A stretch of DNA of 44,131 nucleotides, from assembly GCA_036507075.1 (NCBI GenBank), contig DASXQR010000233.1:1-44131 (forward strand), written 5' to 3'. Shown piece after piece: positions 30,861 through 38,214 of the stretch. The notes under the pieces are model-generated. The model was given only the letters and a program-made list of their open reading frames with translations. It was not told where the DNA came from and searched no databases. Each line of letters begins with the position of its first letter. The first letter of the stretch is position 1. The translations under genes and the position numbers were made by a program. Source of the DNA: Acidobacteriota bacterium (GTDB lineage Bacteria > Acidobacteriota > UBA6911 > JACQSX01).

Positions 30861-33158
30861 ATGCGTTACAATCGCAAGCTGAAATTCAGCCTGATCGCGA
30901 TTTTTGCCGTTATCGTGCTGCTGGTGGCGGCCAGTTACCTGCAGCACACGTTTCAGATCCTGCGGCTTGTCTCCGACGCCGAAAAGCTCCCGCTTAACAT
31001 TAAACAGATCGCAAAACAGTTCGAATACATCGAAAGTCGAAGCGGTAAGCCGATTTTCCGCGTAGTGGCCTTGCGGAGCGTCCAGTCCTCTGAAGGAACA
31101 AACATGCTGGAAGGCGTGCTGCTGGAGAAATACGACGAGAACGGGAAGCCGTCGGACTCGATCCGCAGCGGCCGGGCCAGCTACCAGCCCAATACCAAGC
31201 AGGTGGAATTCAACCAGAAAGTGGAGTTGAGACTGTCCAGCGGATTGGTTCTCCGCACTGAACAACTGAAAGCCGACTTGAACAAACAGTATGCCCAGGT
31301 CGAAAACGGATATTTCTTTGAATCCGGAGATTATACGGGCCGGGGCTCGCGGCTGGCTTACAAGATTCAGGAGCGCGAATTGGAAATGACCGGCGGTGTT
31401 GAGATCATGCAGAAGCAGGGCGAGCAGGTCCAGGGCTTCGCCCGCTCCGACAACGCCCTGATGCTGCTGCTCAAAAACCAGATCTTTCTGCGCGGGCATG
31501 TTTTCGGTAAAAAGGGCGACGACACATTGAATGCCGGTTCCACCGATCTGGTTTATGACTTCGAGAAGAAACAACTGAACGAAGTCCGGGCTTTTGATCA
31601 GGCCGTGGTTAATTCCATGCACTCAAAGGGGAACCGGATGCTCGCCGCTGGCAGCATTACCGTACCCGTTTCCGAGGGACGGGCGACATCCTTTACCGCC
31701 CTGGGGGATGCGCAGCCGGCCCGCCTGGAAGTTCACGAAGCCGACAAAGGCCGCAGGCTGGACGCCGCCACGATCACCGGCAAGTTCGACAAGGAAGGAA
31801 AGCTCGCCTCACTGGATTCTCGACAGAACGTACATTTCGCTGAACTTCCGGCAGGGTCAAAGATCCAGTCCGACACGGCCAGCGCGTCGTTCGGCGGCGG
31901 CAAAATAAAGACTGCCGTCTTTTCCGAGCGCGTGAAGTTTCAGGATGAGGCACATGGACTCACCCTCGACGGCACAAGGTTGACGCTGGGGTTCGACGCA
32001 GCGGGCAGCGCCGATACGGTCCAGGCGGCAGGCCCGGCGGTATTGAACAGCGTTGCTCGCGATCATAAATCGGAGATAAATCTGTCGGCTGATCGAATGG
32101 AAGGAAAGCTCGCGCCAGGGGGCACCTTCGAAAAGGCCAGCGCCTTTGGCAACGCGCTGCTCAAGATGAAGACGATTGAAGACAATAAGCTGAAGACCAT
32201 CGCCGCCGGAAAGGTTGTTGGAAGTTTTGACGGGGCGGGCAATCTGAACGCTCTGTCGGCCGAGCAACAGGTGCACCTGACATTGGATGATGGAAAGAAC
32301 AAGCGAAATACCTACAGCGATTTTCTGGAATCCAGCCTTGCTTCAGGAAAGCTGGAAACAGCCAGACAGTGGCCTAACTTCCGGTTCGAGGATGAGGAGA
32401 CAAGGCTGAGCGGTGAGACCGCCACCTACCAGAAGGGCATAATCAACATACCGCGGCAAAAGAAGTACCCGGTTCTCACACGCAGCGATTCAAAGACCAC
32501 GGCTCAGCTATTTGTTGTTTACGAAAATGAGAACAAGCTGCTGGCCCAGGGAGATGTGAGGTCCGAGGTCAAAAGAAACGCGGCCGCGAATTCGAACTTC
32601 CCGACGTTCAAAGACGATGAGCCCGTCTTTATAGAATCCCGTGAGCTGCTGCTCGCGGATAAGGAAGCCGTTTATTCAGGAGAGGTCAAGGCGCACCAGA
32701 AGAACGATTTCCTATCGGCCGACAAAATGGCAATTCGATCTGAAAGCGGCATGACGGCCACCGGCCGCGTGAAGACCGTTTTCTACCGGGACTCAAAAGG
32801 TCAGTTGAAGAAAGTGACGACCGAAGCGCCACAGCTTGTTTACGACCGCGAAAACCGCACTGCGCGATATTCGGGGGGCGTTCGAATGGTCACGGATGAC
32901 GGCGTTGTCACTTCAAAACTGCTCGATCTTTATTTCAACAAGGACGATCAGATTGAAAACGCCGTGGCGCGTCAGAATGTGGTGATTCAGCAGGGATCCA
33001 GGACGGGAACCGGAAACGAGGCCGACTACAACTTTTCCGCCAACCGGATCAGCCTGACCGGATCGCAGGCCCGCATTGTCGACCCGGCGAAAGGGAAGAC
33101 CTCAGGACGGCGATTGACCTTTTTTATTGGCGATGATAGGATTCTCGTCGAAGGCTAA
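30861..33158 (+). CDS. Large LptC/LptA(OstA)-like LPS transport bridge protein
   Basis: N-terminal TM anchor, repeated beta-jellyroll-like segments, LptA-like C-terminus (ARYSGGVRM, ARQNVVIQQGSRTGTG, TSGRRLTFF); directly upstream of lptB. Confidence 0.75.
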   Translation: MRYNRKLKFSLIAIFAVIVLLVAASYLQHTFQILRLVSDAEKLPLNIKQIAKQFEYIESRSGKPIFRVVALRSVQSSEGTNMLEGVLLEKYDENGKPSDSIRSGRASYQPNTKQVEFNQKVELRLSSGLVLRTEQLKADLNKQYAQVENGYFFESGDYTGRGSRLAYKIQERELEMTGGVEIMQKQGEQVQGFARSDNALMLLLKNQIFLRGHVFGKKGDDTLNAGSTDLVYDFEKKQLNEVRAFDQAVVNSMHSKGNRMLAAGSITVPVSEGRATSFTALGDAQPARLEVHEADKGRRLDAATITGKFDKEGKLASLDSRQNVHFAELPAGSKIQSDTASASFGGGKIKTAVFSERVKFQDEAHGLTLDGTRLTLGFDAAGSADTVQAAGPAVLNSVARDHKSEINLSADRMEGKLAPGGTFEKASAFGNALLKMKTIEDNKLKTIAAGKVVGSFDGAGNLNALSAEQQVHLTLDDGKNKRNTYSDFLESSLASGKLETARQWPNFRFEDEETRLSGETATYQKGIINIPRQKKYPVLTRSDSKTTAQLFVVYENENKLLAQGDVRSEVKRNAAANSNFPTFKDDEPVFIESRELLLADKEAVYSGEVKAHQKNDFLSADKMAIRSESGMTATGRVKTVFYRDSKGQLKKVTTEAPQLVYDRENRTARYSGGVRMVTDDGVVTSKLLDLYFNKDDQIENAVARQNVVIQQGSRTGTGNEADYNFSANRISLTGSQARIVDPAKGKTSGRRLTFFIGDDRILVEG

Positions 33159-33314: not shown

Positions 33315-34040
33315 ATGAAAACACTCGCCAGTGAGGGACTGTCCAAGAGCTATCGGGGCCGGACAGTGGTTCGAGACATCAACATCGAAATCCAGGAGGG
33401 CGAAGTCGTCGGACTGCTCGGCCCAAATGGCGCCGGGAAGACCACGACGTTTTACATGATCGTCGGCCTGGCGCGGCCGGAATCAGGCCGTGTGATCCTC
33501 GACGGAGAAGACATTACCGACATGCCGATGTTCCTGAGGGCACGCAAGGGCGTCAGCTACCTGCCGCAGGAGCCTTCCGTGTTTCGCAAGTTGACCGTCG
33601 AAGAGAATCTTTATGCCATCACGGAGACTCTTGACCTTTCTCCGGGCGAGCAGGATCAACGCGTAAATGACTTACTTGAAGAATTTGGAATTGCGCACCT
33701 GCGAAGCCACCGCGCCTATACCTTGTCGGGAGGAGAGCGCCGCAGGCTGGAAATTGCGCGCTCGCTCGTGATCCGGCCGTCGTTCATCCTGCTGGACGAG
33801 CCGTTCGCCGGTATTGATCCGCTCGCAGTGCTGGATATTCAGCGCATTGTCACGCACTTGAAGCAGCGCGGCATCGGCGTGTTGATTACAGATCACAATG
33901 TCCGCGAGACGCTTAAAATCACAGACCGCGCGTATATCATCAAAGAGGGTAATATTTTCAAAACGGGTACTCCCTCCGTGCTATCATCAGACATTGAAGT
34001 GCGAAAAGTCTATTTGGGCGAGAACTTCCGATTGATTTGA
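33315..34040 (+). CDS. lptB: LPS export ABC transporter ATPase
   Basis: [67 protein letters not shown]. Confidence 0.97.
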
Positions 34041-34043
34041 TCA

Positions 34044-35648
34044 ATGGTTTTGCGACGCGGTGGCCTACGACCCTCCTTGAATGTCCAGCTCAGTCAGCGG
34101 CTGGCGATGACGCCCTCTTTACTTCAAAAAATCGAACTGCTGACTCTTTCGCGCATGGAACTCTCCGAAATGCTCACGGAAGAGCTGATGGAAAATCCCG
34201 TCCTGGAAGAAATCCAGGAAGCGGTGGATCAGGAAGTCTCAGATAGTGCCGAAGTCGAGATTGAGTTGGAAGCGCTGGCGGCGCGCAAGGAAAAAGAAAA
34301 GGAGCAGCCGCCCAATCAGGAGGAATATTCCGACGACGCCGATGAAACCATCCGCGAGATCGACTACTACTTCGATCAATATTCCGGTATGGGCAGTTTC
34401 AACACTCGGGAGTATCCCGATGAGGATCGTCCTTCATTCGAGACTTTTCTTGTCAGCCCGCTCTCACTTTTAGATCATCTGGAATGGCAGTTGAATTTGT
34501 CCGACGCTCCCGCGGACCTGTGCGAGATCGCCCGCTATTTGATCGGCAACATTACGGACGACGGTTATCTGACCGTCACCCTCGAAGAGGCAGCGCAGTC
34601 GATGCAGGCTTCGCTGGAAGCGGTGGAGAAAGCGCATCAACTGGTGATGCAACTCGACCCGGTGGGTGTGGGAGGGCGAAATTTTCAGGAATGCCTGCTG
34701 GTACAGATACGCCAGCTATCGGGGCCAGATACGATCGCCGAGCAGCTGATCCTGAATCATCTGCCTCTGATACAGCAACACAAATTGAAGGAGATAGCCA
34801 AAGAGCTGGGATGTACTGCGGAAGAAGTTACCGATGCGGTACAGGTGCTCAGGACGCTTTCTCCCAAGCCCGGCCAAAAATATAGCTCACAGAAACCGCG
34901 TTACATCGAACCTGATATTTACATTTTCAAGACCGAAGGTGTTTACAGTTGCCTGGAGCATCCGGAATATCGAATCTCATTGCCCGGCTTCTGTCCCGTG
35001 AAACTGAAAGACAGGGACGGTACGCTGATGAACACGCTGTGCGGCCGGGAACTGGTGGATTACGAGATTGAGATGAACGAAGACGGTCTGCCAAAGCTTC
35101 GTCTGAGCGCCTCGTACCGGGAATTGCTGAAGACCAATAACCTTCCCAAGGAGAGCAGGAACTACATCAAGGAAAAATGGCGCAGCGCGCAGGAACTGCT
35201 CAAGAGCGTAAGCCAGCGCAAGCACACCATCTATCGCGTGTGTGCCTCCATTGTCCGCAGACAGCGGGAGTTTCTGGAGCAGGGCGTTACTCAACTCAAG
35301 CCGATGCTGATCAAAGAGCTGGCAGACGAATTGGGTGTTCATTCCTCCACTATCAGCCGCACCGTGACCAATAAGTACGTGCACACACCGCAGGGAGTGA
35401 TGGAGCTGCGCAGCTTTTTCACCGTGGGCGTGGAGAGCAGTGAGGGCGACAACCTGAGCATCGTGCACGTGAAGCACAAGATCAAGCAGATTATTGAGAA
35501 CGAAAACGGCAAAAAGCCGTTGAGTGATCAGAAGATTGCCAACATGCTGAATCGTGAGGGCATTCAAATCACCAGGCGAACGGTCGCCAAATACCGTGAC
35601 CAGATGAGTGTCCCCGGATCGCGTGAGCGCAAATCCGCCCTGGTTTGA
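34044..35648 (+). CDS. rpoN: RNA polymerase sigma-54 factor with Cys/His-rich insertion
   Basis: QRLAMTPSLLQKIELL, ENPVLE, LDPVGVG, HSSTISR, KPLSDQKI, RpoN box RRTVAKYR. Confidence 0.97.
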   Translation: MVLRRGGLRPSLNVQLSQRLAMTPSLLQKIELLTLSRMELSEMLTEELMENPVLEEIQEAVDQEVSDSAEVEIELEALAARKEKEKEQPPNQEEYSDDADETIREIDYYFDQYSGMGSFNTREYPDEDRPSFETFLVSPLSLLDHLEWQLNLSDAPADLCEIARYLIGNITDDGYLTVTLEEAAQSMQASLEAVEKAHQLVMQLDPVGVGGRNFQECLLVQIRQLSGPDTIAEQLILNHLPLIQQHKLKEIAKELGCTAEEVTDAVQVLRTLSPKPGQKYSSQKPRYIEPDIYIFKTEGVYSCLEHPEYRISLPGFCPVKLKDRDGTLMNTLCGRELVDYEIEMNEDGLPKLRLSASYRELLKTNNLPKESRNYIKEKWRSAQELLKSVSQRKHTIYRVCASIVRRQREFLEQGVTQLKPMLIKELADELGVHSSTISRTVTNKYVHTPQGVMELRSFFTVGVESSEGDNLSIVHVKHKIKQIIENENGKKPLSDQKIANMLNREGIQITRRTVAKYRDQMSVPGSRERKSALV

Positions 35649-35654
35649 ACGAGA

Positions 35655-36173
35655 ATGCCCATGAAGCTTGAAATCACAGGCAGACACACCGAAATTACTC
35701 CCGCCTTGCGTGCCTTCATCGAAGAACATCTGGAGAAAATTCCGCGCGTTTTGGGGAATACTCTGGGAGTCCATGTGATTCTCACGGTCGAAAAGAAAAG
35801 GCACATCTGCGAGATCATCCTTAAATCCAAGACCGGACAACTGACAACGCTCGAGGAAACTTCCGACATGTACACCTCCATCACACGCGCCAGCCACAAG
35901 ATGGAGAAGCAGGTGCTGAAAACCAAAAAGAAGAAGGTGGAAGTCAAGCGACGGAAGGCCACGCCCCGGCGGCCACGGATTGAGGAAGCTCCACCGCAGG
36001 GACCGGCGGTAATCGAGGAGAGTATTTCCAAAAAGCCCATGGCGATCGAAGAGGCCCTCCTGAACCTCAACGAGTCCCGGAACGGGTTTGTGGTTTATCG
36101 CGATTCTGAATCCCGCACCGTGAGCGTTGTGTATCGGCGTCGTGACGGGAATATCGGGCTGATCCGGGCATGA
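35655..36173 (+). CDS. hpf: Ribosome hibernation promoting factor (long HPF)
   Basis: LEITGRHTEITPALR, DMYTSI, KPMAIEEA, VVYRRRDGNIGLI. Confidence 0.92.
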   Translation: MPMKLEITGRHTEITPALRAFIEEHLEKIPRVLGNTLGVHVILTVEKKRHICEIILKSKTGQLTTLEETSDMYTSITRASHKMEKQVLKTKKKKVEVKRRKATPRRPRIEEAPPQGPAVIEESISKKPMAIEEALLNLNESRNGFVVYRDSESRTVSVVYRRRDGNIGLIRA

Positions 36174-37057
36174 AGAGTCCTGTCATTCTGCTGTCCCTGC
36201 TGCTGTGGTTGCAGCAGGGAAGCGTTGAAGAGAGTGTCACTCTAAAACTTCGCGCCAGCATCAAACCGGGCCAGCCGGTTTCGGTAAGCCGGCTTTACAA
36301 CGAAGTGTTCGTCGATCCGGCGGAACGCAGAGTGCTGGAGCGGCTGTTCAATCTTTTCTTTAAGATCCCGATTTACATTGTCGAGCGGTACGAGTCGCAG
36401 AAGCGGCCGCCTACGCTGAGCGAGCTCTCCGCGCAGTTCCGCCTGACCGTGCCGGGCGAGGCCGATGTGCTGCTGACGGTGATGGAGGCAGACCCGCGGG
36501 TGCCGAAATTCTTCCGCCGCGACGCGGTGACAAAAGAAATCGTCGCAGTCGAACCGCAGGCGCTGCGCTCCAACAGTAACTTTTCCGCACGTCTGGATCG
36601 AAGCCTCGGCGGATTGGAGAATAAGCCTGCTCCCGACTTTAGTCTGAAGACGTTCGAAGGCAAAACGGTAGATCTGTCGAGTTATCGCGGCAGGACAGTT
36701 TTGGTTTACTTCTGGTTCACCGGCTGCCCTCCCTGCGGGCAAATCAGCCCTCATCTGGGTGCGTTGCAGGGCAGGTATGGGAACAGGAAGTTCCAGGTCC
36801 TCGGTTTGAATGCGGATCGAGTACTTGAGATTCCCAATGATGACGCCGAGCGCGCCGAATATGTGCGCGAGCGGGGCATGAACTTCACCAACCTGCACCT
36901 GGATCCTGAAACACTGAAGGCGTATGGCGATGTATCCATCTTCCCAACGCTGTTTCTGGTGGGACCGGACGGCATCATCCGGCGCCAGTGGTTGAATTAT
37001 CAGCCGCTTGAGAAGCTGGAAGCTGAAATCAAGAACCACCTTCCCGCAGTCCGATAG
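36170..37057 (+). CDS. TlpA/ResA-like thiol-disulfide oxidoreductase with extra N-terminal domain
   Basis: Signal-peptide-like start, PAPDFSL, VLVYFWFTGCPPC, FPTLFLVGPDG; ATGA overlap with hpf. Confidence 0.82.
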   Translation: MKSPVILLSLLLWLQQGSVEESVTLKLRASIKPGQPVSVSRLYNEVFVDPAERRVLERLFNLFFKIPIYIVERYESQKRPPTLSELSAQFRLTVPGEADVLLTVMEADPRVPKFFRRDAVTKEIVAVEPQALRSNSNFSARLDRSLGGLENKPAPDFSLKTFEGKTVDLSSYRGRTVLVYFWFTGCPPCGQISPHLGALQGRYGNRKFQVLGLNADRVLEIPNDDAERAEYVRERGMNFTNLHLDPETLKAYGDVSIFPTLFLVGPDGIIRRQWLNYQPLEKLEAEIKNHLPAVR

Positions 37058-37341: not shown

Positions 37342-38214
37342 ATGGAGCTTAAGACTCTTGTCATCATTACCGGCCTGAGTGGATCGGGCAAGCACACCGT
37401 CTTCAAGGCGTTTGAGGACCTTGGCTATTTCTGCGTTGATAACATCCCGATTCCGCTGATTCCCACACTGATCCAACTGACCGAGGCGACTGCCGGCCGC
37501 GTGGACAAACTCGCCGTGGTTATCGACGCGCGGCTGGGAGAAGCGATTCAGGATCTCAAAAAGCAGGTCGAAGAACTGCAGCAGTATCCCTTCAGGACGG
37601 TGCTGGTGTTTGTCGAGGCATCGGAAGCCGCGCTGGCGCGCCGCTACAGTGAAACCAGGAGGGTCCATCCGCTGGCACATGATCGCAACGTCATTGAAGG
37701 CATACGCGAGGAGCGCGAAAAGCTGCGCGAAATCCGCAGTCTGGCGGACCTGGTCCTGGATACCAGCGACTCCACGGTGCACGAGCTCCGCAGGCTGGTG
37801 GAAGACAATTTCCGCGATATTGAGCAGGCCGAAAGCCTGGTGGTGACAATCATGAGCTTTGGCTATAAGCACGGAATTCCTTTCAGCGCAGACCTGGTGT
37901 TCGATGTGCGCTTTCTGCCCAATCCGAACTTTGAGCCGCATTTGAAAAGCAAAACCGGAGCGGATCCGGAGGTGATTGCCTACATGAAGCAGTTTCAAGA
38001 TACTGAAATCATGCTCGGAAAGATTACCGACATGCTGCAGTACTTGATTCCCAAATACATCGAAGAGCGAAAGTCATATCTGACGATTGCCATTGGTTGC
38101 ACGGGGGGACGCCATCGCTCGGTAATGATGGCCTCGGCGCTGCGCGATCAGCTCGGCGCAAGCGGCCTAAAGATTAACCTCATTCATCGGGATATTCATA
38201 CGCAGGAGCCGTAG
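37342..38214 (+). CDS. rapZ: RNase adapter RapZ (YvcJ/YhbJ P-loop protein)
   Basis: TGLSGSGK, FEDLGYFCVDNIP, RRYSETRRVHPL, SFGYKHGIP, DVRFLPNP, IGCTGGRHRSV. Confidence 0.96.
   Translation: MELKTLVIITGLSGSGKHTVFKAFEDLGYFCVDNIPIPLIPTLIQLTEATAGRVDKLAVVIDARLGEAIQDLKKQVEELQQYPFRTVLVFVEASEAALARRYSETRRVHPLAHDRNVIEGIREEREKLREIRSLADLVLDTSDSTVHELRRLVEDNFRDIEQAESLVVTIMSFGYKHGIPFSADLVFDVRFLPNPNFEPHLKSKTGADPEVIAYMKQFQDTEIMLGKITDMLQYLIPKYIEERKSYLTIAIGCTGGRHRSVMMASALRDQLGASGLKINLIHRDIHTQEP

Follow-up and report, generated by a model that had tools for sequence, protein, structure and literature searches.

A conserved HMBD-derived domain inserted at a hairpin tip of sigma-54 in one family of uncultured acidobacteria

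Control of sigma-54 is generally regarded as coming from its activators, outside the protein itself, and the length of region III hardly varies. A sigma factor with a Cys-based metal module of its own, as in the protein analyzed here, has been described in the case of CorE and CorE2 of Myxococcus xanthus. Unlike sigma-54, these are sigma-70-family ECF factors, in which the module is a C-terminal Cys-rich domain plus a CxC linker; their metal dependence and metal regulon have been shown experimentally (PMC8999054). Homology to our insert is not expected. The insert itself leads to a different described system, the HMBD module (PF19335) found at the end of the metal exporters LpCopA and SilB/CusB. 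As described in PMC11970713, this fold, whose first and last strands pair in the LpCopA domain, acts as a metal sensor in LpCopA and SilB. The LpCopA domain holds Ag+ through M44, C59 and M61, and not through C42, C56 or the His, according to NMR and ICP-MS. In alignment, its residues C42, H45, C56 and C59 fall on the ligand positions of zinc-binding domains, a set that the work only calls compatible with zinc, without demonstrating binding.

The region of sigma-54 that concerns us is the tip of a β-hairpin assigned to the modulation domain (PMC2715252) or, alternatively, to the start of the ELH-HTH domain (PMC11839083). What the tip faces is not stated in the portions available of PMC5095919, PMC10786286, PMC5505868, PMC10083551, PMC9770992 and PMC6028918. 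In an Ala-Cys scan of Klebsiella sigma-54, in vivo activity was 106% for substitutions at 281/282 and 102% for those at 283/284, with normal core binding. For pairs within 275-280, core binding was weak and activator binding weak or missing, and the pair 285/286 scored 7%, with core binding and activator contact weakened (PMC2715252). Because 281-284 tolerate substitution while 275-280 and 285/286 do not, the tip is permissive and the strands are important. In the literature, searched as full text with subscription journals mostly absent, no sigma-54 with an inserted metal-binding domain was found.

Here we analyze an rpoN gene carried by a 44,131-nucleotide stretch of DNA, hereafter the window (Table 1). 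Its product shares with ordinary sigma-54 (TIGR02395) the three Pfam domains (AID 11-56, CBD 132-302 and DBD 373-530), the RpoN box, the usual lptB-rpoN-hpf-rapZ cluster and the company of bEBP-like partners, 18 in this genome, and differs from it in that one hairpin turn carries a domain of 39-41 residues. The gene is present in single copy, with one tblastn match in the 6.1-Mb genome, and the named relatives of its product are all Acidobacteriota. At 30861-33158 the window encodes a 765-residue protein in which several stretches of LptA/LptD-N type come after an LptC domain; the protein is conserved in relatives. A TlpA/ResA-like thioredoxin-fold gene at 36170-37057 overlaps the hpf stop codon, and its product begins with a hydrophobic, signal-like stretch; a tie between this gene and the insert was rejected, since the gene occurs in the window and three relatives and was not found in two insert-bearing loci. 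An ORF of about 305 residues, presumably hprK-like judging by its position, precedes rapZ in the loci L041-L043 and is missing from the window and from L038. Finally, the family member L043 has no hpf match between rpoN and rapZ, and in L042 hpf is shorter, at 137 residues.

Table 1. Positions in the window of the rpoN cluster, the insert with its putative ligands, and the strands of the host hairpin.
Feature	Position	Strand	Basis or remark
lptB	33315..34040	+	TIGR04406 above cut-off; 5' of rpoN; synteny kept in relatives
rpoN, sigma-54, 534 aa	34044..35648	+	TIGR02395 equivalog model, 405.8 bits versus cut-off 277
Host hairpin, first strand, D291-K296	34914..34931	+	Alignment with solved sigma-54 chains; strand in model
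HMBD-derived insert, V300-V338, 39 aa	34941..35057	+	Alignment versus insert-less orthologues, PDB profile match 8OVL, Pfam HMBD
First pair of putative ligands (C303, H306); E305 takes the copper-binding Met position	34950..34961	+	C303/H306 invariant 9/9
Third putative ligand, C317	34992..34994	+	Invariant 9/9
Variable extension in second knuckle, V319-L332	34998..35039	+	Predicted β-hairpin, strands 320-322 and 328-332
Fourth putative ligand C333, R335 (second Met position), closing strand to V338	35040..35057	+	C333, L337, V338 invariant 9/9
Host hairpin, second strand, Y340-N345	35061..35078	+	Alignment with solved sigma-54 chains; Y340 invariant
hpf (ribosome hibernation factor)	35655..36173	+	Directly downstream of rpoN
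rapZ	37342..38214	+	3' member of rpoN cluster

An earlier note on this DNA had pointed to a heavy-metal-binding-domain-like module at 34944-35057, and in the rpoN frame this stretch is indeed Y301-V338, with C303, H306, C317 and C333 as claimed. Alignment with orthologues delimits 39 residues that are absent from ordinary RpoN, the edges in Table 1 being the best placement, with an uncertainty of about two residues. In the protein the insert follows the core-binding domain and precedes the extra-long helix, at a hairpin tip where ordinary sigma-54 has a turn of two residues. Y340 corresponds to residue 285 of a 477-residue solved sigma-54 chain, which we take to be the Klebsiella protein, and the insert thus stands in place of the turn near 283-284; none of the solved sigma-54 chains that were aligned has an insert at this turn. 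The span from PGQKY to NEDGLP measures 75-77 residues in five family loci, versus 37 in the single locus of the same order and 36 in 22 class loci, while two of the 30 loci gave no match to the span pattern and show a short hairpin in the alignment. The spacings noted earlier are also correct: 10 residues separate H306 from C317, as in HMBD, and the 15 between C317 and C333 exceed the canonical 2 by 13. The claim that both Met are lost stands for the HMBD positions, with the amendment that the first is occupied by E305 rather than L304 and the second by R335. The window's insert does contain M329, which is not conserved in relatives.

Sequence comparison shows homology of the insert with the HMBD module, an origin borne out by the PDB profile match, the Pfam HMBD score of one relative, and the alignment. 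A profile of six inserts found the LpCopA metal-binding domain (8OVL) as the best of 177,635 PDB sequences (E=3.3e-5), in a match covering the first 20 positions only. Against Pfam HMBD, the window's insert reaches 15.4-15.7 bits (E=0.018), below the gathering cut-off of 23.6, and among five further cut-out inserts one lies above the cut-off (26.4 vs 23.6 bits) and two have no match. With a profile built from 35 canonical units, seven of the nine known inserts outscore the best shuffle (11.6 bits; 1,589 of 1,800 shuffles scored), and all nine contain the HMBD core of C-x2-H-P, 10 residues and C-P. Like the domains of LpCopA and SilB/CusB, the insert shows Y-x-C-x2-H-P-E, P-G-x-C-P and C-G-x-x-L with the 10-residue His-to-Cys spacing; it is also predicted to have their strand pattern, with terminal strands that would pair. 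Unlike the insert, those domains keep the Met ligands and a two-residue last Cys spacing, and they form the end of a metal exporter, whereas the insert is a single copy inside a cytoplasmic transcription factor. The CPxCG rubredoxin-like knuckle is not kept: in the inserts the last two Cys are separated by 15 or 17 residues, where 211 of 215 canonical units have 2. MAFFT placed the 35 canonical units on the insert with a single gap and the last HMBD Cys on C333; the placement depended on query trimming, and two alignments that misplaced the HMBD rows were discarded.

All five genomes of the family, which consists of uncultured acidobacteria, carry the insert, and it has no counterpart in the sole other genome of the order or in the class loci read. 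When an insert-less query was compared with 151 phylum genomes, 148 matched. The match was split only in the window's genome, and in the other 147, three of which are marked unpublished, it formed one piece of 225-255 bases, except in G043. The latter shows a 276-base match (G043:C62:5991-6266), approximately 8-9 residues longer; beyond it and the insert bearers, no RpoN of the phylum is extended around this region. A query that included the insert matched none of 300 other phylum genomes at E<=1e-12. Protein searches yielded seven matches among 19 candidates and eight among 2,176, every one insert-bearing, and a metagenome scan matched two of 132 stretches; one of these (L039) was a 14-residue chance match and was rejected as an insert carrier, leaving one added locus. 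In a profile search of 1.84 billion representatives, the 92 matches comprised 91 multi-copy HMBD-type proteins and P0016, a repetitive chance match that was rejected as an HMBD relative. No RpoN was among these 92; a single canonical unit would score below them, and an HMBD-bearing RpoN of another phylum could thus exist. The ESM Atlas gave only sigma-54 clusters scoring under 0.9, and no usable match beyond these. A midpoint-rooted tree of 27 RpoN sequences with the insert cut out supports one gain (support 100/99, and 100% of 200 bootstrap trees): the insert was gained once, in frame, in the ancestor of the family.

Conservation was assessed on nine distinct insert-bearing sequences that are 67-91% identical. 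All four Cys/His residues are invariant in these relatives. Nine of the 18 columns in 301-318 and three of the six in 333-338 are invariant, against none of the 14 in the loop before C333. The pN/pS ratio, calculated without correction from six genes with synonymous sites near saturation and therefore useful only for ranking regions, rises from 0.11 in the helix and DNA-binding part through 0.18 (insert core) and 0.30 (core-binding domain) to 0.64 in the loop. The insert is a real part of the protein and is under selection. On the outgoing strand of the extra hairpin, the loop keeps the pattern K/R-[V/L]-K/R-x-K/R, with K/R at 320 (8/9), V/L at 321 (9/9), K/R at 322 (9/9) and K/R at 324 (8/9). 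The earlier note had considered a DNA-contacting ribbon. A strongly basic ribbon is disfavored by the net charge of -2 to +1, which makes the insert about neutral overall, whereas a contact surface is plausible, because the outgoing strand keeps this basic pattern.

The metal ligands set the insert apart from its parent fold. Neither Met of the Met-Cys-Met trigonal sulfur site (M44, C59, M61) is found in any of the nine inserts; the first Met position holds E or D in all nine and the second (335) holds K/R in eight. The pair is hence acid/base in eight inserts and acid/Leu in the ninth, compared with Met/Met in 199 of 210 canonical units (drawn from 88 of the 92 profile matches, four being left out). 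Loss of the two Met would mean that the insert has no Cu(I)/Ag(I) site. The acid/base pair may instead form a salt bridge at the same tip, which is reasonable given that both Met of LpCopA contact a single ion. The earlier suggestion of a Cys3His zinc site gains support, since the four putative ligands are invariant, stand in two pairs and keep the zinc-type positions. The two Met ligands of copper are gone from the alignment, and we infer zinc at the Cys3His site. Judged by its domains and alignments, the protein is a sigma-54 of the ordinary kind whose architecture is new, and its insert is HMBD-derived and outside the copper-binding HMBD type.

Met-less units with the same exchange were observed in a family of 63 HEAT-repeat proteins, which have two to four tandem HMBD-like units annotated as PF19335; P0026, P0078, P0087 and P0109-P0171 are proteins of this type. 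The three proteins that come with an organism name are from Planctomycetota, and 31 of the 63 have a lipobox-like N-terminus. None of the 202 pattern-matched units has either Met. These units resemble the insert in that an acidic residue (D/E) and a basic one (K/R) fill the two Met positions (163/202), in a G-[R/K]-[E/D]-L tail (108/202) and in the wider spacing of the last Cys pair (4 residues in 126/202), and differ from it in being tandem copies with a last Cys spacing of 2 or 4 rather than 15-17. A profile of the Met-less units outscores the canonical profile on all nine inserts, the two profiles not being calibrated against each other, and in eight of them its match takes in the C333 tail as well.

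A model of residues 291-368 (pLDDT 90.8, pTM 0.60) contains both strands of the host hairpin, strands in the HMBD pattern and, between C317 and C333, an additional hairpin formed by 320-322 and 328-332; its alignment of 58 rows combined 6 inserts, 17 insert-less RpoN sequences and 35 HMBD units, which makes the fold partly circular. In a full-length AlphaFold2 model from seven RpoN sequences alone, residues 274-354 fall below pLDDT 50. Foldseek ranked 8OVL first for the insert model, but at a non-significant E=1.0 and rmsd 4.3. VIA-align gave no match at Z>=5; only the zinc module of SIRT6 (Z 2.1-2.8) and Nop10 (Z 2.0) appeared, with scores in the chance range, and 8OVL was absent from the rows with Z>=2. 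The zinc of SIRT6 occupies a structural site in which a loop splits the last two Cys, according to PMC9662279. This module is like the insert in being a zinc ribbon with a loop inserted between the last two Cys and in the weak structural match, and unlike it in being a Cys4 site of a eukaryotic enzyme, and we use it as an analogy only.

We regard it as moderately probable that the insert is a Cys3His zinc micro-domain with a structural role, from which an additional contact hairpin projects. This reading starts from the single gain in the family ancestor, in which one micro-domain of the HMBD fold entered sigma-54 in frame at the permissive hairpin tip. There the paired first and last strands (the fold according to PMC11970713, the fit according to our model) would let the domain sit in the turn with the host sheet intact. 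The Cys-His-Cys-Cys set would have been kept most likely around one structural Zn2+, and the zinc core would hold the extra hairpin with its basic strand outward from the holoenzyme. The hairpin could then offer core RNA polymerase, an activator or DNA near the -12 region a permanent surface to contact, and the effect would be a tuning rather than a switching of sigma-54 transcription. The invariant ligands do not single out this model; a sensor would also be expected to keep them, and so would a passenger whose only requirement is to stay folded. It also counts against this model that RpoB and RpoC have no family-specific indel matching the insert.

A possible, though unlikely, alternative is that the insert is a built-in switch responding to zinc availability or thiol redox state: loss of zinc or oxidation of the Cys3His set would unfold the insert, distort the host hairpin and turn down the whole sigma-54 regulon. 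The location speaks for this, as substitutions in the strands that flank the insert impair core binding and activator contact (PMC2715252), and so does the sensing role of the parent fold in LpCopA and SilB (PMC11970713), with CorE and CorE2 as sigma factors that have metal sensors of their own (PMC8999054). However, the known sensing ligands of the HMBD fold are lost, and such a switch would be global, because one sigma-54 serves 18 bEBP-like ORFs in the genome. The genome has 16 strict -24/-12 sites, hardly above the 5-18 obtained with control spacers, and the 18 ORFs downstream of 15 of the 16 sites reveal no metal-homeostasis theme; they include one outer-membrane efflux and one HlyD-type gene, whose substrates are unassigned.

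It is rather doubtful that the insert is a folded passenger, inserted by chance at a tolerant tip and kept since exact excision is rare, with selection acting only for folding. The tolerance of the tip in the Ala-Cys scan (PMC2715252), the narrow distribution in one family, the drifting loop, with its high pN/pS and its two lengths, and the lack of a co-occurring RNA polymerase indel would all suit a passenger. Against it, the basic pattern at 320-324 is kept in eight or nine of nine sequences, the insert is never lost or shortened in nine sequences of such divergence, and the hairpin span is otherwise constant in the 147 genomes.

Copper or silver sensing in the manner of the canonical HMBD of CopA and CusB/SilB is very improbable. 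The homology to HMBD, the retention of the Cys equivalent to C59 and the presence in all five family genomes of canonical HMBD genes, a possible source of the insert, would favor it, but no insert has an equivalent of M44 or M61, and copA/cusB-like genes have no -24/-12 site (<=1 mismatch) within 600 bases upstream (5/7 family loci read). The small probability that remains goes to another metal, such as iron, at the Cys3His site. An artefact (assembly chimera, intron, intein or mobile element) is scarcely credible: the genome is a metagenome assembly and nothing else favors this, whereas the insert occupies the same place in nine divergent sequences, a contig of a different study spans both junctions (34830-35200) with one difference, the codons of the putative ligands change synonymously while the amino acids stay fixed, the flanks show no duplication at the in-frame offsets that were tested, inverted repeats do not exceed 6 bases, and the terminal His-Asn in which inteins end is absent. 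The identical insert also occurs in three other database records, possibly including the source of this DNA.

Because region III is constant in length and control of sigma-54 is regarded as external, a conserved, folded, putative metal domain in this region is a new architecture however it works. If structural, it marks a site at which sigma-54 tolerates a grafted folded domain, and points to a family-specific holoenzyme contact. If it were a switch, it would add a new level of control over the whole sigma-54 regulon, above all enhancer-binding proteins, a mode that we otherwise found described only for sigma-70-family ECF factors. For the HMBD fold, exchange of two Met for an acid/base pair would turn a copper sensor into a probable zinc finger, which bears on the annotation of PF19335 matches. 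The scope of the finding is one small uncultured family, known here from sequences alone.

Some further observations concern the transcription machinery. The -24/-12 consensus is matched strictly about 310 bases upstream of rho (L081, G000:C31), which may be due to chance. RpoC has no family-specific indel accompanying the insert, and a role of the insert as replacement of the β' zinc domain was rejected, since that domain is intact. In RpoB, a variable insertion of 10-31 residues near residues 281-307 (L096) is absent from six outside genomes; it was rejected as a co-evolved indel, as it occurs in four of five family genomes and is absent from the insert-bearing G002. A second RpoB insertion, of 61 residues near the N-terminus (L096:368-550, G000:C213), is absent in G021, has weak double-zinc-ribbon Pfam matches, and contains eight invariant Cys in 10 of the 11 class genomes aligned.
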